A stretch of DNA of 64,000 nucleotides from a virus. The stretch covers positions 29,163 to 93,162 of the IMG/VR virus record IMGVR_UViG_3300044712_000557; one strand, given 5' to 3'. Shown one piece after another: positions 5-41,637 of this stretch (position 1 is its first letter; every line of letters begins with the position of its first letter). The translations under genes were made by a program, and so were the position numbers. The notes below the pieces were generated by a model. The model made no database searches and was not told where the DNA came from. It saw only the letters and a program-made list of their open reading frames with translations.

Positions 5-208
5 TTGCCGTCCATCGTGCTGCGCCATGATGGAGGCATCAATCCCAAGACGGGGAAGCCTGCCGTGCGATGGCTTGACGACATGCTGGCGCGCAGGATG
101 GAAGTTAGCCATGCCATGGTGCAGGCACTCTACGACAACCTTCCTGACGACCTGAAGGAGTCCGAGAAGGAGATCGTTCCTCTCATGGGGGTGAAACTGA
201 ATGTCTGA
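5..208 (+). CDS. partial C-terminus of a probable replication protein upstream of DnaB
   Basis: ORF runs off the window edge and overlaps the DnaB start. Confidence 0.4.
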   Translation: MPSIVLRHDGGINPKTGKPAVRWLDDMLARRMEVSHAMVQALYDNLPDDLKESEKEIVPLMGVKLNV

Positions 209-1550
209 AGAGGTTGTAGACCTAGATAACCCAGAGGTTCTCTTGATCGCCGGGGCCTTGATGAAGCCAGCCCTGGCGATCGAGGCGGCTCGCTACGTGA
301 CCCATGATGACTTCCAGGACCATCGTATCGGTCAGATCTGGGGGATCATCATCAAGATGGTCAACGACGGGCTCAAAGAAGACGAGATCGATATCGTAGG
401 CATTGCACATCGGTATAGTACGAACCCGAATGAGCAGCGGAATATCCGCATGCTCTGCTCTGCGATCACCGATGGGATGCCTCGTGCGACGTCCCTCGTC
501 CTGCTGGCCCAGCGAGTGCGACGTCGCGCTACGATGCGATTGGCGATGGGCGAGATCCGCAAGATCGCCGTCGAGCTTCAGTCGCAGATCACTTCCAACG
601 ATGGCGACATGCCAGACCTGGACCTGAGGCTGTCTGGGCTCTCGGTGGCCGTCCATACACGATCTGACCTAACCAAGAAGCGCACGCAGTACAAGGATCT
701 GGGCTCAGAGGTCAGTCGGTACTTCGACGGGCTCATCAGCGGGGATAAGGGACTCTACGTGCCCACGGGGCTCCCAACCCTGGACCGATACCTTGGTGGA
801 GGATTGCGCCCTGGGCAACTCCACGTCGTCCTAGGGGGCACGGGATCGGGCAAGACGGCCTTTACCTCGCAGCTATGCGATCGGGCCTCTCTGGCGGGCA
901 AGCGTGCCCTTATGTTCTCGATGGAAGTCGACCCCCTGGACGTCTACATCCGCGACGTGGAACGGGTAGCTGGGGTGAGCCGCTGGGATCTTAGGTCGAG
1001 GGTCCAGGCGGAACGTGAGGCGGCCCAGATGGCCCTCATGGAAGCCCAGAATATCATCCTCAACCAGCCTCGTGGGAAGACCGTATACGGGGAGCCGATG
1101 TCCCTGGAAGGGATCCGGCAGGCGGTCCTAACGGAGCGTGTCAGGGGCGGCAAGGTAGACATGATCGGTGTCGACCATGCCCAGGTAACTTTGCCTTCCG
1201 AGGGCGAGCTTCGTACGATGCCGCGCTATCTTCAGGTGAAGAGTACCGCTGAAGGCCTGCGCGCACTGGCTCGCCAGCTAGGCATCGCAGTCGTCTTGAC
1301 CGCTCAGTTGAATCCGCCACCGAAGGGTGAAGAGCCCACGATGGCGATGGTGCGCGAGTCCAAGGACATCAACAACGCCGCTGAAGTTGTCATGCTCATT
1401 TTCCATAAGAAGGAAGAGGAGCCGATGACAGGGCAGATGTTCATCTCAGAGTCCTGGCTCATCCTTGAGAAGGTGCGCGCTGGCCGCGAGGGGCGCATCG
1501 CTCTTAAGTATGACGGCAAGTGCTTCAGGTTTACGGAGGCTACGTTGTGA
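201..1550 (+). CDS. dnaB: replicative DNA helicase, DnaB family
   Basis: PTGLPTLD..LGGGLRPGQL, Walker A GGTGSGKT, FSMEV, VDHAQ, AQLN, EKVRAG motifs. Confidence 0.92.
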   Translation: MSEEVVDLDNPEVLLIAGALMKPALAIEAARYVTHDDFQDHRIGQIWGIIIKMVNDGLKEDEIDIVGIAHRYSTNPNEQRNIRMLCSAITDGMPRATSLVLLAQRVRRRATMRLAMGEIRKIAVELQSQITSNDGDMPDLDLRLSGLSVAVHTRSDLTKKRTQYKDLGSEVSRYFDGLISGDKGLYVPTGLPTLDRYLGGGLRPGQLHVVLGGTGSGKTAFTSQLCDRASLAGKRALMFSMEVDPLDVYIRDVERVAGVSRWDLRSRVQAEREAAQMALMEAQNIILNQPRGKTVYGEPMSLEGIRQAVLTERVRGGKVDMIGVDHAQVTLPSEGELRTMPRYLQVKSTAEGLRALARQLGIAVVLTAQLNPPPKGEEPTMAMVRESKDINNAAEVVMLIFHKKEEEPMTGQMFISESWLILEKVRAGREGRIALKYDGKCFRFTEATL

Positions 1551-32754: not shown

Positions 32755-35700
32755 TACTGATCACTCCTCTGGTCCGTATCTCCTACGCTTAGCTCGGTCC
32801 AGTTGCCGGTAGACTGGTGGCGAACGCGAACCATGTATGTCTCAAATCCATGGAAGCCTTCAGAGCTGGCGTAGGAAGTACGCAACTTGACGGCCAGCCT
32901 GCGGCCCTTCGTGTCCCTTGGCAAGATGACCGTGTAGACGTCTCTAACATCTGGGTCGACCACAACAGTTTCGGTGCAGTGGAGATGGCCGTTCTTATAG
33001 ATGTCCAGATACAAATTATGCAAGCTCTGGATCTCCAACTCTACCTGATTGATCCAGGCCAAGTCGCCACCGTTGGGTGGGATGATATTACCAAGGTCCA
33101 TCGAGTACACATGCTGAGGACGGGCATTGTAGGTAACCCCGAAGCCATGGAACGACAATGCGCTCATGGCCCCAAAGATCTCTACCTGCACCCTCATAAA
33201 TGGACCCAAGTCCAGGATGTCTGCCCTCCAGATGCCCTCTCGCATCATCGAGTACGAGAGTGTTTTGTTAGGAGCAGCAGGGAACTCGGTCGCATCGGTG
33301 TACAGATTAACGGTTCCTACGGACCCTCCAGTCTTACCGTGAATCTGAAGGTCGGCAGGATCCTTTCGAGTCAACGGAGAATCGCCTTCGATATACGGAG
33401 ATAGCATCTCAATGTAGATGTCGCTCCCACTATCAAGCTCTCCGTCCTCAATCTTGATCACGTTTCCTTCGTAGCTGCCGGCGATCAGGCCCCCATCGTA
33501 TTCGCGATGAAGCGACATGATGGTGTTTACCCCATACGTGAAGCGGCACCATTCGTCTCCGTAGAACTTCCACAGGGACGTAGATGCAGTTTCGAATACC
33601 GACTCCTTAGCGTACGGGGAACTGCAGTATAGGAATAGCTTGCTCCCAGGGGTAGCTGTCAGCGTCAGAATGCCAGAGCTGGTATCGATCGTGGCAACCA
33701 CGGAAGGGTGCGCTGAGGCAACCTGATAGTCTCCAGCAACTCCTCCCGTGCCATTGATAGCGTGCATCATGTTGGTCCACGAGATGTCAGCGTCGTTACC
33801 GATCAGCACTTCTCCGTTGGCATTCACCTCGTTTGTTACGAAGCGATACGTACGGCTGTCGATGATGACCTTGTCGCCATTTCTAGGGTTCGTCGTCTCA
33901 TAGCTGATCGTAGCGATAGGGTTGGAACCCTCAGGGGCCAGCATATAAAGGTTGTGGTCGTCCATCTCATAACGGAATCGACCGTTCTTGGTATCTAGCG
34001 CCGATACTCCATAGCGATCGTAACCCTTCCAGAGCATACTGGTTCCAGCGAACGGTACCGGCTCTCCGCTAGCTCCCGTGAATACCATGGGTCCGTCTGC
34101 GGCACGGTAGTACACGCTATTCCCGTCTACGGTCACAGAGCTGTCTACGGGCGGGTTAGCCACACTGAGAGGATCTGGGTAGAGATCGGCCAAGAGATTG
34201 TCTTCTAGCACGTCTCCACTGCCGGCAATGCGTACGATGTCCTTGCTCATGCCAACGAAGATGCCAGAGGACGTCTTGACGCACCACTTTGGCTCACCAT
34301 ACATGCGCAGATCGATCGTCTGATAGAGGCTAAAGCTGGACGGAGAACGCTGCGAGGATGGGTAAAGCCACCCCTCCTTCGTAAGGGCGAAGATCCTCTT
34401 GTTCCATGGCCCCGCCACAGAGATGATGTTGTCTGGAGGCCCTACGGACCCAGCTTCGTACACCTCATTCTCGATGAGCGCCTCAAGCTCGCTCTTGTAG
34501 ATCTTGGCCACCAGATCTGGCGTCTCATCCGACTCATTGGTCGTCTCTGAAAACGCATACGAAGACAGTCTTGCCCACTCGCCTGGGTCATCTAGAAGAT
34601 TTGGTTCTGAGATGTCATCGATCGTCATCCCGCCGCCAGGAGAAGCTGGTAGAATCGCCACGCGATAGTAGGTGTCTAGCCATCCGCCATATAGGTAGAC
34701 CCATACCTGATTGACCTGGGAGTCCTTCAGGTTCATCGTTGCGGCCGGGACAGTGAACTGCAGCGTCTGCTGCTGGAGTACGATCGACTTAGAGATCGGG
34801 GACATCGGGGACAGCTCTGTGTAGACCTCCGCGCCACCTCGATCCATGAACTTGCGAGCGAATCGGTATCCTACCTGGAATGACCCAGTCAGAGCCCTAT
34901 TGCCTCCACCGGTCCAGATGGCATCGTCAAGGTAGATCTTCTCTGTAGCGCCTGGGATGCATGTGTAGACCACCTTGAACCCACGAATAGTCTTCCAGTC
35001 ACGTCCAGGCGTTCCCCCAACACGATTGAACTGACCGCGAGTCACAGTTAGGTGGCCCCAGGCTGGAGATGCTGCCGAAGTATCGGCCCTCTCCCTGGAG
35101 CGCGATCCGGCGAACCTGCCAAGCGCACGTAGCACCTTCCCCGCGTCCGAAGGGCTCTTTACGCGCGTGATGTCCTGAGGCGTCAGCACCGATAGCAGCT
35201 TCGTATTCGAGATCCCATAGGCGGCAGCCGCATTTGACGCCGCATCCTTGATGTCTACCGTGCCGGTATTCCTAATGTTGAAGTCGAAGTAGTAGTAGTC
35301 GTCCAGGAATGGGTCAGCACCGGTCGACATACCAAACATGATGGTGACCTTGTCGACCTTGCGCGGCTCTTCTAGGTGGACTCGAATGTCGAAGAGGTCC
35401 GTCTGACCTCCGATATTCCCCAGGAAGTTGAGGAAGTCTTCATTAGTCGTCCACTTCTTCTGGACCGCAGCGCGGCCAGAGCCTGGGTCTGGAGTAAGCT
35501 CCATGGCACCATTAGGAACCGATCCATCGTAGTTGTCACGGTAGATGCCAGTCCCCTCTTTGACTTCTACGGCCGGACTCTCCGTGCTACTGAAGTCGCA
35601 GGCCGCAAAAGTGATGGCGTCAATAGCGCTGAGGATAGGAGCTGACGCTGGAGCCGCTATGCCCCAGTTATTGAGCGTCTCGCCGTCCCACTTCTTCTTG

Positions 35701-36048: not shown

Positions 36049-39000
36049 TTATACGTTGGCGAGAGCTTCGACGGTCTGAGTCACTCCATCGTCAGAGACT
36101 GCTCGGTCGAAGATCGCGTTGCCGGCAGAGTCGTACCACGTCTGAGCAGACGCTGTCTGGTCGATCTTGTTCGCGAAGCGCTGGAAGACAAGCTGCAGCA
36201 TCTCTCCATACCCAGCCGTTGGTCCAGGAACTGACGCCAGCTCAGCGGCAGGAGACAGATTCCATGGACGAGCACCCGCGCCCAGAGCGTAGATGGTCGT
36301 GTTGTTTGGGATTGTGCTCCATGAGGAGTCTACCGTGGCCTCGCGCTGGCCTCCATTGTAAGAAACCACCACGCGGGCCTGCCCTGCCCCATCTCCATCC
36401 AGGGTCACTACGACGCATCCGTTGTAGTAGTTGTCCGTAGGAGACGCATTGGAGTCAAGCTTGATCTTCACCCCACTCGGAGAAGACTGAGTCTGGGCGT
36501 ATCCAACACGCAGCCACATGGACGAGAGCACGGCATTGATGTCGTTTCCGTTGCCGGTACTGGTAGCGATGATTCCGTCTCCGTCACCGTTGCCGATGGC
36601 CGTGATGGCGTCAGCATTCGTTGGACCCTGCGAAGCGTCGATGTCCAGCTCGCTTAGGCGCATAGCAGTACGAACCTGTATGTGCTGATCCCTGAAGGAT
36701 GCACCAGAAGCGTCATGGATTACTAGGTCCAGCATCTCGCACTGCATTTCTGCTGCGCTTAGCGTTAGCTTATACAAGTAGGTTGAAACCTGCGTCGGAG
36801 CGTTATCTGACGTGCTGTCATAAACTCCGTCCTTGTAGATCAAGCAGTCAGCCTGTACAGGGGCCGTACTCGTGTAGAACAAGTCAGACGACGAGCCAGA
36901 TGGAGCCCTCAGCGTGAAGGTAATGGTCTTGGCTACGCCATACTGGCCGTCGAATTGAAGTGTCTGCATGAGATCCTCTTCTAGAGATGCCGCTAGCGGC
37001 TCAGTTGCGGTAGTGAAAGTCTTGTCACTACCATAAAGGGTACCACCGCCATTTGCCGTATATACGGCCTTGGCCTTGAAGAAATACGTCCTCTTGAGAG
37101 CTAGCCCAGAGACTACAGCAGAGAATGGAGTAGTCCCGTCGTTCGCATAGTTGACAGGAGTAGTTTCATTGGACCACGGAGCAGAAGTCTCTGTGGTTAG
37201 GGTGAACGTGGCCTCATCTGTCGAGAACGTCAGTGTTGGGTTCGTGTTGGTCGGGACTACTAGAGTGACGTAGTTGTCGATTGCGCTGATAGCTGCCGTC
37301 ACGTATGGATGAGCTGCGGCTGCTACGTAGTTGATTCCCTCAACCCCACCATCCTTATTGATGGCGTACTTGAGATTCAACATCGTGGCATCAGCGTTCG
37401 TGCCAATCAGTACTTGATATCCACCACCAGGAAGATCGGTTCCTCCACTCATAACTGTCGTAGTCACGGCGGCGCTGGTGTCGGATAGGTCGATCGAGTT
37501 TCCGGCAGCTCCACTGCTTAGGGCAGTGATGCTAACGGTGTTTGGACCAGAGTTGTGGACCGCTGACACCCAACTGTTCGCCCCTCCACCCCATGGGAGG
37601 TAATCGTTGCCAACTCCTGGCGTTCCACCGCTATTGTTGATGGCCCTGGTTAGGTTCAGGAACGTAGCGTCGGCGTCGGCTCCAATGAGAACGTCTCCGG
37701 CCACCTCAACCTGATCTCCGCCGCTTGGGTCGGTAATCGTGAAGCTAGACTCGTCAGACGTGAAGTCAGCGTTTCCGTAATGCCCAGCAGCCAGGGTCGT
37801 GAATGTGATCCAATCACTGCCTGCGCTATGAGTCGCAGAGAAGAGAGGATGAGCAGCAGGACCAGCTCCGAAGTTGTAGGCAATGTAATCGTTACCCACC
37901 CCAGAGGTACCACCAGAGTTGTTGATGGCACGCGACAGATTCAACATCGTAGCGTCCGCATTTGCCCCGATAAGGACATCTCCCGCGTCCTCTACCTGCG
38001 ATCCTCCAGTTGGGCTAGTAGGAGTGATCGACGCATCAGTCGTGGATATGGTGATGTTGCCTACCGACCCCACTGATAGAACGGTTAGATTGATCTCGTC
38101 GGCCCCGGCATCCTGTGCTGCAGACACGAGCGGATGAGCCGCGTTGTTCCAGGAGATGTAGTCTCCACCCGCTCCCTCTGTCCCACCGCTCTTGTTTATA
38201 GCGTGAGCTAGATTGAGCATGGTTGCGTCTGCATTTCCAGCCCTCTTGACGTCTCCAGCCTGAGCCACTGTAGATACGAACGTATATACAGCATCTGGAT
38301 TGGGCCCGCCAACCGGGATCGTAACCGTCTTTGTGATGGCTGGGTTAGTTCCGTTGATGTAGGCCAACTTACCGCCGGATGCGGCCACTTCATTCTTGAA
38401 CTTGTAGATCCCAGGAACTCCGCCAGCGGTTGGCAACGTGACAATCTTGCCGTGGGTAGGCTGTGTTCCATTCACGTAGGCGATCTTGCCGCCAGTCGAT
38501 ACCACCTCATTGACAAAGGTGTACGTAGATCCCTCGATCACGATAGTGTCGAGCGGAGAAGGTTGTCCACTGTAGGCGAACTGGCCAGTAGCAGTACTGT
38601 TAGTCAGGAACGTGTACGTGATCGCACCAATCGTCAACACCTTGCCGTTGGTTACGTTCACACCATTGTTGTAGTCTACCCTGCGGTACGCTTGGCTATT
38701 CCACAGGAATGACACATCTACTCCACTAGGGAGAGAGTTGGCATCGATGGTTCCATTTAGGACAGCCGATACGTGCGATACGGAAGAAGCATCCTCAGAA
38801 GTAACTGTCGGCGTAGCAGCCAGCGTAGAAGCCGACACGGTAGAAGACGAGGCGTTCGCTGTCGGCAGATAACCATAGGTGATGCCTCCGTACGACACGT
38901 AGGTACCCTGCCCGGCCCAAAGGTTGTTCGATACCGTACGCGACACGTAGATATAGAACTGGTACGAAGTACCGTAGTCTAGGCCAGTGATCGTCTGCGA

Positions 39001-39510
39001 GATTGCCTGCCATCCAGATCCGCTATATGGCCCGTAGGTGCCATGTAGCGTCCAAGAGACATCGGTCGTCTTCTTGTAGTAGAGGTATGCGGTGCCGGTT
39101 GACTCAGTAGTGTTGGGCTTCCACTGCCCATAGAACGCCACCGAAGTTCCATCGACCACTGTGGCCTGCACGTTCTGGAATTCGACAGCCATGGCCACAG
39201 ACTTGAAAGCCTGCATGCTCGTAACTTCCCAGACTCCGTCGCGACGGATGGCTACCCTATGGGATAGAGAGATGTCGGAGGGGATTGCAATGTCGCAGTA
39301 GAAGGTACCGTTGTCGTTGATGGACACACCAACGGTACCCTCAGGTCCATTGCTATTGGTGTACGGGATACCACCCTGTAGCAACTGAACCTGCAGCTTG
39401 ATATACGTATCCGGGGTTTCACTATACCAAGCTCCATGGTATCGGCATACCTCATTGGTACCCGAGATGTATGGATCTGGCTGGCCCCTGCCGTCTCTCT
39501 GAATGCCCAT
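36049..39510 (-). CDS. virion surface/tail protein with Fn3 domains and nested repeats
   Basis: ITGLDYGTSYQF and VSGLALKRTYFFKA Fn3 motifs; four DVLIGANADATMLNL-type repeats. Confidence 0.7.
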   Translation of the reverse strand: MGIQRDGRGQPDPYISGTNEVCRYHGAWYSETPDTYIKLQVQLLQGGIPYTNSNGPEGTVGVSINDNGTFYCDIAIPSDISLSHRVAIRRDGVWEVTSMQAFKSVAMAVEFQNVQATVVDGTSVAFYGQWKPNTTESTGTAYLYYKKTTDVSWTLHGTYGPYSGSGWQAISQTITGLDYGTSYQFYIYVSRTVSNNLWAGQGTYVSYGGITYGYLPTANASSSTVSASTLAATPTVTSEDASSVSHVSAVLNGTIDANSLPSGVDVSFLWNSQAYRRVDYNNGVNVTNGKVLTIGAITYTFLTNSTATGQFAYSGQPSPLDTIVIEGSTYTFVNEVVSTGGKIAYVNGTQPTHGKIVTLPTAGGVPGIYKFKNEVAASGGKLAYINGTNPAITKTVTIPVGGPNPDAVYTFVSTVAQAGDVKRAGNADATMLNLAHAINKSGGTEGAGGDYISWNNAAHPLVSAAQDAGADEINLTVLSVGSVGNITISTTDASITPTSPTGGSQVEDAGDVLIGANADATMLNLSRAINNSGGTSGVGNDYIAYNFGAGPAAHPLFSATHSAGSDWITFTTLAAGHYGNADFTSDESSFTITDPSGGDQVEVAGDVLIGADADATFLNLTRAINNSGGTPGVGNDYLPWGGGANSWVSAVHNSGPNTVSITALSSGAAGNSIDLSDTSAAVTTTVMSGGTDLPGGGYQVLIGTNADATMLNLKYAINKDGGVEGINYVAAAAHPYVTAAISAIDNYVTLVVPTNTNPTLTFSTDEATFTLTTETSAPWSNETTPVNYANDGTTPFSAVVSGLALKRTYFFKAKAVYTANGGGTLYGSDKTFTTATEPLAASLEEDLMQTLQFDGQYGVAKTITFTLRAPSGSSSDLFYTSTAPVQADCLIYKDGVYDSTSDNAPTQVSTYLYKLTLSAAEMQCEMLDLVIHDASGASFRDQHIQVRTAMRLSELDIDASQGPTNADAITAIGNGDGDGIIATSTGNGNDINAVLSSMWLRVGYAQTQSSPSGVKIKLDSNASPTDNYYNGCVVVTLDGDGAGQARVVVSYNGGQREATVDSSWSTIPNNTTIYALGAGARPWNLSPAAELASVPGPTAGYGEMLQLVFQRFANKIDQTASAQTWYDSAGNAIFDRAVSDDGVTQTVEALANV

Positions 39511-39519
39511 TACTACTCC

Positions 39520-39933
39520 TTACGCAGGCGTTGCGGTACGGTGGTGGAACACTACTACCGAGAGGGTTCCCGAAGCTACTGTCACAGATACTCCTGTCAG
39601 GTTCGCAAGAACAACGGTCACCTCATTGGCTTGCGATACGTGAGCAGACAGGAGAAGGGCACCTGTCCCAATCGAAGTCAGGTCGGCCATCACCTTGTCT
39701 CCCAAGGCCGCCCCAGGGGCAGCAATGGTCGTAGAGGCAACGCTACCAGAGGCAATCGTTCCAGGAGCCCAAGTGGCCGCAGGGGCCTCTCCTGCGGGGC
39801 CTGCGATAGAGAAACTGGAGATGGAGATCTGGTGGCCGTTGAGTACCCCCCCGCTGGGGTGCGTCTTCGTGGTCGCGTTGACCCCATATTCCAGATCTTC
39901 GGCCATAGCCGTCTCGATGATTACTGCCATCAC
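39520..39933 (-). CDS. small structural protein
   Basis: GAALGD.V..LSAHVS.AN.VTVVL.N motif typical of fibre/decoration proteins. Confidence 0.6.
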   Translation of the reverse strand: MMAVIIETAMAEDLEYGVNATTKTHPSGGVLNGHQISISSFSIAGPAGEAPAATWAPGTIASGSVASTTIAAPGAALGDKVMADLTSIGTGALLLSAHVSQANEVTVVLANLTGVSVTVASGTLSVVVFHHRTATPA

Positions 39934-40973
39934 TACCCCCTAAAAGGCCTGGAGTACCCGTAGTCAGCCGGGAAATGCTGCAGGTACCCATCTAGCTGCG
40001 TAGAGCGCTTCGACCCCATGGCGATCGTTCTCGCCCTCATCGTAGATCTCACGCGATTCTTAATTAGCTCCACCCCAGAGAAGAACCTCATCTGGAAGTG
40101 GTCTGCTAGCTTTTTGTTCTCGCCCTGCCCAGGCGTTGAATAGGCTCTATACATCGCCCACCACTCAACGTACTTCACGGCACGATCTGGAAGTTCAAAT
40201 GGATGCGTGTCTAGATCTCGTCCCAGCCTAAACAACTCAACGCGGGTTGCATTTTCGTCTGGTACGATCCTGCGAATGAACCCATATTGGTTGCCACTGA
40301 AGTGACGCGGAACCACACGCGCGAAACCATACGATCCAATGACGGGCTCATCCTCCATGTCGTAAGAGGTAAGCTGACGTATGCCTCCGACGGTTCCATA
40401 GATCTCCTCGCTAGGCACAATGGCCGCCGGCACATTGACTAGGCGAATGTTCTGCCATCCGTCCTGGTCCATCTGATACGAGAAGGTTCCTCCCGGAAGC
40501 GTCTGGTAATGGGAGCGAGTCTGACGATGGTACTTCTCGCTTTCAGGCTCTAGCCTTAGCCAGTTGTGCGTAACCCTGTCCACTGCCACGTAGCCATCTG
40601 GCAAGCGGCCCAAAGTGCGCGGTGTAGCCGTGTAGCCATCAGCGCTGCTGTTCATGTACTCCGCATCGGTTGGGCGAGTGTGATTGGCGACGATGGCCGT
40701 ACCGTCTACGAACTCTGCCTCAGAGTCGCGAGTTATCGTGAATCGAGATAGGATCGGCGTATCCATGAAGTCGCGTTCGAAAGGCTTGGTATAGTTGCCA
40801 GTCAGCGGACGCGGATCGTACATCTCCATGTCAAAGAGACACTGCGCCTCTCGACACAGGCGATCGTAGCCGTCCTGCAGGAAGTGGCCTAGTTGCTCGC
40901 GGCTCCAGACCTCTTCGTCTTCGTCGTCTAGTCGCCTTTGTAGGCGTGCGACAGCCTCTACCTTGGTGATCAT
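39933..40973 (-). CDS. head-tail adaptor-like protein
   Basis: RRLDDED..WS..L..FLQDG start; helical C-terminus. Confidence 0.6.
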   Translation of the reverse strand: MITKVEAVARLQRRLDDEDEEVWSREQLGHFLQDGYDRLCREAQCLFDMEMYDPRPLTGNYTKPFERDFMDTPILSRFTITRDSEAEFVDGTAIVANHTRPTDAEYMNSSADGYTATPRTLGRLPDGYVAVDRVTHNWLRLEPESEKYHRQTRSHYQTLPGGTFSYQMDQDGWQNIRLVNVPAAIVPSEEIYGTVGGIRQLTSYDMEDEPVIGSYGFARVVPRHFSGNQYGFIRRIVPDENATRVELFRLGRDLDTHPFELPDRAVKYVEWWAMYRAYSTPGQGENKKLADHFQMRFFSGVELIKNRVRSTMRARTIAMGSKRSTQLDGYLQHFPADYGYSRPFRG

Positions 40974-40974
40974 C

Positions 40975-41637
40975 CTAGCGCCTCAGTCCCATCTTGGGAG
41001 TCCTATCCCTACGCATCCTGTTCTCACCAACGTCCTTCAGTAGCGGCACCTGGGCCTGAAAGCGCTTGTAGTACTCCAGGCTCTTGTCGATCTCTTTACG
41101 CTCACCTAGGAGTTCGTACATCATGTAGTTCTCGATGGCTTCATGGAAGTCGGACGGAAGATCTGGAGAAGACGAGAGCCCCGTCACTAATCCGCCATGA
41201 GCAGCTACGTGAGGCATGAGGGCAGAGAAGTAGACCTTCAGTGGGCTGCAATCGTCGCCGGCCACCGGATAGGCCCCGAGATACCAAAGGCCACGCATGA
41301 ACCACCAGCGAGTCTGGTCGCTACGAGTCTCCCAGTGACGACCAACGGTGTCGTCTAGCTCTCTAACGGTGATGGGATCGAGCCACTTCTGAGAGTTTGG
41401 ATTCCATACTGAGGTGATCCTAAGCGCCGATGGCGGGAGAGCCCCGCGAAGATCGGTGTAGACTGCCCACTTGCGCCGCTTGACGTAAACGTTGTTCTCA
41501 TAGATCTCAGTGGCTTCACTGATCTCATCGAGAGCATCGTTGTACGCGCGCACGTAATCGTCAACCGTGAAGAACTTCTCGTCGGGGTCTTCAAGGTTGA
41601 TCTTGACGCGAGCGATCGTCTGAGCGGCTGTGGACAT
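40975..41637 (-). CDS. head-tail adaptor-like protein
   Basis: RVKINLED..YNDA..YP.P..PDLPSDFHEAIENY. Confidence 0.65.
   Translation of the reverse strand: MSTAAQTIARVKINLEDPDEKFFTVDDYVRAYNDALDEISEATEIYENNVYVKRRKWAVYTDLRGALPPSALRITSVWNPNSQKWLDPITVRELDDTVGRHWETRSDQTRWWFMRGLWYLGAYPVAGDDCSPLKVYFSALMPHVAAHGGLVTGLSSSPDLPSDFHEAIENYMMYELLGERKEIDKSLEYYKRFQAQVPLLKDVGENRMRRDRTPKMGLRR

Follow-up and report, generated by a model that had tools for sequence, protein, structure and literature searches.

Four homologous alpha/beta domains predicted to be nested within one another, inside an Fn3-like domain, in a putative phage virion protein

Introduction

How does a polypeptide fold when four short repeats of one type occur in a row and are then followed by four longer repeats of a second type? 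This question is raised by an open reading frame at positions 36049..39510 (-) of the 64,000-nucleotide stretch of DNA that was analysed as a whole, referred to here as the window. Its 1153-aa product, P0001, has orthologs and contains Fn3-like domains, the repeat block and a conserved C-terminal region. The window derives from a virus record of 93,162 bp that is complete and has direct terminal repeats; the phage is uncultured. In a preliminary description, the short and the long repeats were taken to be the N- and C-terminal halves (A and B units) of one and the same domain, arranged in the order A1A2A3A4-B4B3B2B1, and it was proposed that this domain had been inserted into itself within an Fn3-like domain, building an out-and-back stalk comparable to the outer domains of flagellin. 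To our knowledge, it is rare for a domain to be inserted into its own homologue in a nested fashion, and in-depth documentation mainly concerns Si3 of cyanobacterial RNA polymerase.

The terminase, the portal and the major head protein are encoded upstream of P0001 on the same strand, and a 2524-aa protein is encoded downstream of it. Because of this gene order, we infer that P0001 is a structural protein of the virion, belonging to a structural module located downstream of the major head protein, and it is probably tail-associated. A blastn search with the P0001 gene against 50,697 phage records gave zero matches. Scans of P0001, and of the product of the next gene downstream, P0002 (32754..36038, 1094 aa), against Pfam and PHROGs assigned neither protein to a family, and a sequence search of the PDB with both returned nothing. 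In the Protein Atlas, the C-terminal region of P0001 and P0002 matched solely unnamed viral clusters and viral hypothetical proteins. P0002 had been labelled a nozzle protein in the preliminary description; these searches gave no match to nozzle or tail tubular protein B families, and the label is used here as putative.

Results

Anatomy of the repeat block

The block occupies residues 271-777 (window 37180-38700), which corresponds to about 500 aa. Its first part, residues 271-411, consists of four short N-pieces (the A units), each of them a beta hairpin ending in Y-x-F (YTF, YTF, YKF and YTF, at residues 301, 332, 371 and 411, respectively). The remaining part, residues 412-777, consists of four C-pieces (the B units) of about 92 residues each, starting at residues 412, 504, 599 and 691, which open with G-D-V-L-I-G..A-D-A-T-x-L-N-L-x-x-A-I-N and carry the ADAT.LNL..AIN helix. 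The succession of four N-halves and four C-halves is therefore as it had first been described, and the span given at the time, 37190-38690, corresponds to residues 274-774 of the block delimited here as 271-777. The wording that the domain is inserted into itself four times is correct as to the number of copies; strictly, there are three self-insertions and one insertion into the Fn3-like domain. A similar short motif stands on either side of the insert, N-E-V-x-x-x-G preceding it and Q-V-E-x-A-G following it.

At the DNA level, the sole repeat in the block is a 68-nt stretch coding for the strand-helix motif, found at window positions 37346-37413, 37625-37692 and 37910-37977. Identity of 65-71% over just 68 nt indicates that the copies are old, with no recent duplication. 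The genome contains exactly five copies of the long (C-piece) unit, and a pattern scan of IMG/VR with the B profile found one locus only.

A single contiguous copy of the domain is encoded by the neighbouring gene, at residues 711-823 of P0002 (33570..33908 (-), by BLASTP and HMM), close to the position at which an intact A+B copy had been noticed before (33645-33920). When P0001 and P0002 were compared by BLASTP, all four C-pieces of P0001 aligned to residues ~696-798 of P0002 with E-values (1e-8 to 3e-6) which argue that the repeats are not due to chance. In addition, A4+B4 aligned contiguously to residues 704-794 of P0002, which shows that A followed by B constitutes one domain; the same contiguity is seen in 48 single-domain members of the family discussed below. 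Moreover, the four N-pieces and the four C-pieces match common HMMs and the P0002 copy, i.e., the inserted and the host copies are homologous.

Predicted structure of the block

Residues 228-842 of P0001 (615 residues) were modelled as a monomer with AF2, using an input alignment of 9 sequences, eight of which were orthologs. The pLDDT values were mostly 80-95 in the repeat block and below 50 in the Fn3 flanks, and the pTM was 0.52. As a probe of nesting, the model was aligned structurally with 48,161 PDB representatives and then with the top 1000 chains from Foldseek, and the pairing of A and B units was deduced solely from where the aligned segments begin and end, together with the aligned lengths. 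Compact single domains of ~110 residues from the PDB fell on four classes of model range, in each of which 90-97 residues were aligned with an rmsd of 2.4-2.8 to single-domain structures. The ends of these ranges (276, 373, 465 and 551 in model numbering) are the ends of B4, B3, B2 and B1, and each range begins with strand three of the A unit that precedes it.

Described from the inside outwards, domain 4 is the innermost, contiguous copy (residues 380-503; 38002..38373 (-)), matched over model range 148-276, with Z up to 9.5, by outer domains of phage sheaths, residues 149-247 of T7-type nozzles, D2/D3 of FliD and FliC. The N-piece of domain 3 (residues 341-371) and linker L3 (KNEVAASG) are located at 38374..38490 (-), with ranges starting at model 107-109, and its C-piece (residues 504-598) at 37717..38001 (-); over model range 107-373, 96 residues of 9rku_BD were aligned (rmsd 2.6, Z 7.3). 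Domain 2 comprises an N-piece (residues 309-332) followed by linker L2 (VNEVVSTG), at 38491..38586 (-), with ranges starting at model 76-79, and a C-piece (residues 599-690) at 37441..37716 (-), and was matched over model range 76-465 by 9hz7_A (93 residues, rmsd 2.4, Z 7.9). The outermost copy, domain 1, comprises an N-piece (b0-b1-b2, residues 271-301) followed by linker L1, at 38587..38700 (-), with ranges starting at model 42-48, and a C-piece (residues 691-777) at 37180..37440 (-). Its model range, 42/47-546/551, was covered by 9ndy_H (47-546, Z 7.1) and by FliD, 9gnz_S (45-551, 92 residues, Z 5.5).

One sheath domain (chain residues 91-202) matched domains 4, 3 and 2 with an equal number of aligned residues, which indicates that the outer domains use both their N- and their C-pieces. 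Non-nested ranges, such as 107-465, were absent among the structure-alignment matches. The AF2 model, a check that the preliminary description had itself proposed, thus pairs A1 with B1 through A4 with B4, in ranges that coincide with the unit boundaries, and folding of the A and B units as independent tandem domains was not seen. In this prediction, the outer domains are discontinuous, with N- and C-pieces that flank a complete inserted domain, and nesting goes to at least three levels, the depth being four in P0001. The model therefore supports the view that four copies of one alpha/beta domain are nested in the predicted structure. Weak Ig-like or sandwich matches to the model spanned residues 14-610 (Z~3), and these would fit a fifth, outermost level, namely the host sandwich. 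A Foldseek search of the PDB with the 615-residue model gave no match at E<=0.001, and weak rows were obtained for FliD, Si3, sheath and Thermus beta'.

The order of elements in the predicted domain is b0-b1-b2-linker-b3-helix-b4..b7, and the point of insertion is the b2-b3 linker, between strands 2 and 3. The layout of A and B units in the preliminary description was retained, and its A-unit register was corrected: in structural terms, the third strand (e.g. GKIAYVNG) is part of the domain one level further in. That this strand might be a duplicate of b3 was also considered, and rejected, the structure alignments making it b0 of the next inner domain.

The similarities among the units provide a view of the pairing that is based on sequence. 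Firstly, mean identities over the nine four-unit orthologs were tabulated among the N-pieces, in the corrected register, and likewise among the C-pieces; comparison of the two matrices gave r=0.91 under the nested map and r=-0.80 under the parallel map. The sole map that did better than the nested one exchanges the sister domains 3 and 4, and it is these two that resemble each other most, in their A units (0.57 for A3 and A4) as well as in their B units (0.57 for B3 and B4). Secondly, in P0013, an unrelated three-deep protein, the inner A hairpins are 90% identical and the inner B units 69%, so that the two halves co-vary. Across other lineages, the congruence between A and B units within single proteins is noisy, being clear in P0013 and P0029 while P0116 and P0085 point in the opposite direction.

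The host domain and the ortholog series

Ten orthologs, 636-683 aa long and 39-52% identical, were retrieved when the C-terminal region of P0001 served as the query. These ten short orthologs are without P0001 residues ~271-778, the flanks ..V-S-F-x-W and ..N-E-T.. being joined by 6-13 residues. One of them, the insert-free P0162, was modelled with AF2 as three consecutive beta sandwiches, the third of which (residues 244-351) is the host domain. Residues 138-347 of this model align with two-domain FnIII pairs (Z 11.7, 186/193 residues) and residues 1-347 with three-domain FnIII fragments; FnIII matches had Z-scores of 11-13 and a Foldseek probability of 1.00, and the viral matches were Fn3-bearing minor tail proteins. 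In P0001, the N-terminal half of the host domain, delimited by alignment with the insert-free orthologs and by the ortholog model, lies at 38701..38814 (-) (residues 233-270, ending ..VSFLW), and the C-terminal half, delimited by the ortholog alignment and the model, at 36985..37179 (-) (residues 778-842, ..SGLALKRTYFFKAKAVY..). The earlier claim that the block splits an Fn3-like domain is thus borne out by orthologs in which the flanks are joined and the host domain models as an Fn3 sandwich. Over the host domain, the threshold of the Pfam fn3 clan was missed, with PhoD_N at 21.9 bits and Pur_ac_phosph_N at 19 bits, both sub-threshold. Because of this, the host domain is, according to the model, Fn3-like by fold and not a member of Pfam fn3.

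Within this lineage, the number of domain copies (n) forms a series of n=0 (the ten short proteins), n=3 (one protein, P0011) and n=4 (nine proteins, i.e., P0001 and eight orthologs), and no orthologs with n=1 or n=2 were seen in it. When the three units of P0011 were compared with the four classes of P0001, the outermost domain alone was clearly orthologous.

A domain family with bracket-like architectures

A profile built from the five C-pieces was used to search 1.84 billion proteins and retrieved 584 cluster representatives, with one to eight copies each. No Pfam or PHROG model for the C-piece family was found in the proteins scanned. The order of units was written as a word of A's and B's, by means of A and B HMMs, for 152 proteins, namely the best 150 of the 584 and earlier homologs. 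Among these 152, the word AB was found 48 times, AABB 26 times, ABAB 17 times and AAABBB six times, and AAAABBBB occurred in five lineages; mixed words included AABBAB, ABAABB, AABABB and AABBAABB. Where the numbers of A and B units were equal, with at least two of each, 65 of 66 proteins had a balanced-bracket order, compared with 19 expected at random. After refinement, 121 of the 152 words were balanced and 31 were unbalanced, mostly lacking weakly detected A units; in P0015, unbalanced according to the HMM, four hairpins could be recognized by eye. Depth 4 was reached in the P0001 lineage and in four other lineages, and depth 3 in at least six proteins, among the 152 examined. The survey of nesting depth that had been suggested at the outset therefore gives depths of 0-4 for the P0001 lineage and family, with most words being balanced brackets.

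Several members of the family show further arrangements. P0044, P0079, P0098, P0025 and P0069 have words of the types A(AB)(AB)B, A(AB)(AB)(AB)(AB)B or (AABB)(AABB), that is, tandem insertions in one host copy or tandem nests, from which it follows that linear nesting is accompanied by branching in this family. P0026 (991 aa, NCBI source) has five C-pieces after four detected hairpins and, judged from these counts, may possibly be a five-deep nest with one undetected hairpin. P0012 (637 aa) has a two-deep AABB after a signal-peptide-like N-terminus and short repeats of the NVTG type, and has a different C-terminal domain, so that the nest occurs outside an Fn3 host too.

One member, P0064, is a flagellar hook protein, FlgE, of 1182 aa (Pfam: Flg_bb_rod, FlgE D1, FlgE_D2 and Flg_bbr_C), which was found with the C-piece profile at E 1.9e-14. 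Between its D1 and D2, at residues 189-925, six copies of the family's domain follow each other in tandem. These copies would link outer domains of phage virion proteins and of a flagellar hook protein at the sequence level. Matches to PF05354 (Phage_attach) were obtained with P0058, P0060, P0064 and P0074. They are weak, only partly above threshold and confined to the hairpin (profile ~56-85), and were rejected as a sign of homology; they probably reflect the resemblance of a short beta hairpin.

Discussion

How the chain may run

Starting from these computational observations, we propose that P0001 is a virion protein, probably tail-associated, built on a string of Fn3-like sandwiches, the third of which would carry in a loop a module of ~500 residues made of four homologous alpha/beta domains of ~115 residues. 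Each domain would be inserted into the b2-b3 linker of the next outer one, and the chain would run out via the four N-pieces, complete the innermost domain, and return via three C-pieces, by which domains 3, 2 and 1 are closed. The nest may accordingly form a two-stranded, out-and-back projection from the surface of the virion, whose reach would grow with depth. The projection is suggested because the module is absent in orthologs and all its structural analogues are exposed. Likewise, because some orthologs have no copy and one has three, the module would seem to be a dispensable accessory, exposed at the surface and probably serving contact with the host surface, with reach or valency growing with depth. 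As to how the nest grew, either whole copies were inserted with duplication of a linker, or N- and C-pieces were duplicated in tandem in a paired manner; each of these modes would give the seven linkers observed. For the explanation as a whole, i.e., nested domains in an Fn3 loop that form an accessory projection, we estimate a probability of roughly 0.78.

Alternative readings

It is conceivable, albeit unlikely, that the nest is real but compact, with the domains lying side by side on the Fn3 domain in a cluster of globular or fan-like shape instead of an extended rod, so that depth would add bulk or binding sites and not length. On the one hand, the pTM of the model is just 0.52 despite high per-residue confidence, so that the inter-domain geometry is not fixed by it, and branching does occur, some family members having two to four insertions in tandem within a single host domain (AABABB, AABABABABB). 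On the other hand, each inserted domain has to keep its termini as well as its own insertion loop accessible, and the closest solved analogues (D2-D3 of FliD, the outer domains of flagellin, and Si3) are extended.

A swap between subunits, in which the A hairpins of one chain complete the B units of a neighbouring chain and the counts reflect assembly, appears improbable. Tail proteins of virions are oligomeric while the AF2 model is that of a monomer, and equal numbers of A and B units would be expected in this case too. However, all four domains are already closed in the model of the monomer, where confidence is high and the superpositions are native-like, the innermost copy and the single-copy members of the family are contiguous and need no partner, and a swap does not require the bracket order seen in 65 of the 66 proteins. 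Finally, the idea that there is no pairing, the A run being a separate array of beta hairpins and the B units independent tandem domains, would account for each run being tandem in sequence, since two independent expansions could create both, but it has very little left in its favour given that the hairpin is always part of the domain in contiguous family members, that the counts are balanced and bracket-ordered across lineages, that the model ranges are nested and that the similarity matrices of A and B co-vary.

Relation to known folds and nests

The domain of the predicted nest shares its fold with the outer domains of phage sheath proteins, with residues ~149-247 of the T7-type nozzle, and with T4 gp11, D2/D3 of FliD, FlgK and the outer domains of flagellin; the matches are to many independent members (Z 6-9.5, rmsd 2.1-3.2, 82-102 residues), with moderate scores that indicate similarity at the level of fold only. 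The best matches were the outer domains of sheath proteins, i.e., those of A-1(L) (Z 9.5), PhiTE (8.9), Mu (8.0), and Milano and 7-7-1 (7.3-7.9), and the gp12-type nozzles of T7, Kp7 and Kp9 (~149-247) matched the nested domains at Z 7.1-7.8. Like the proposed projection, the sheath outer domains and the nozzle domain are surface-exposed additions, in their case to tube-forming proteins. However, the sheath and nozzle proteins align as one contiguous copy in the matched regions whereas the copies in P0001 are nested, and their sequences have no similarity detectable by the PDB sequence search, the Z-scores of 7-9 being only moderately above the background of the search.

Preliminary comparison with flagellin has gained in substance, both through the fold matches to FliD D2/D3 and flagellin outer domains and through the FlgE hook protein that carries the sequence family. 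D2-D3 of FliD belong to the same fold class (Z 6-7, ~100 residues aligned), and 97 residues of the flagellin of Geovibrio thiophilus (9au6_A) were aligned, drawn discontinuously from chain positions 177..592. According to PMC11532411, D5 of this flagellin is a duplicate of D4 that sits in one of the loops of D4, and D4 is related to D2 of FliD. The depth of that nest is two, compared with four in P0001, and its host is the flagellin D1 core rather than Fn3. The similarity of the P0001 domain to FliD and flagellin is one of fold only, with no sequence match to FliD, flagellin or any PDB chain.

In the case of Si3 of cyanobacterial RpoC2, hybrid-motif (SBHM/HABAS) domains are reported to be nested up to six levels (PMC13114784). 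As in the nest predicted here, small homologous domains are inserted recursively and the chain runs out and back within a loop of the domain that hosts them. Si3 differs in that its domain is a beta sandwich-barrel hybrid and not alpha/beta, and in that it is part of a cellular, essential protein (RNA polymerase beta') and not of a phage virion; it has no sequence relation to the P0001 domain. A literature search on nested domains in phage tails found nothing relevant. The phenomenon of self-nesting and the fold are thus known already, and the novelty lies in the depth, in the occurrence in a phage, and in an unannotated sequence family whose words follow a regular grammar.

Implications

We tentatively suggest, while giving it somewhat less than even odds, that the domain is a dedicated self-nesting block whose b2-b3 linker is a permissive socket, and that the resulting projections are graded or branched, with depths of 0-4 (possibly 5) tuned to the envelope of the host. 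If this were so, virion proteins of phages and at least one flagellar hook protein could evolve rigid two-stranded projections by adding bracket levels. The orthologs with n = 0, 3 and 4 in one phage lineage offer a clean system in which to study the folding of discontinuous domains, the growth of nests and the possible tuning of projection length on a virion, and the family could be a natural scaffold for length-adjustable display.

Neighbouring genes

Just upstream of P0001, two genes at window positions 39933-40973 and 40975-41637 (-) both match PHROG 399 ('structural protein'), the match of the 346-aa product being confined to its C-terminal part. These adjacent genes look like a paralogous pair.
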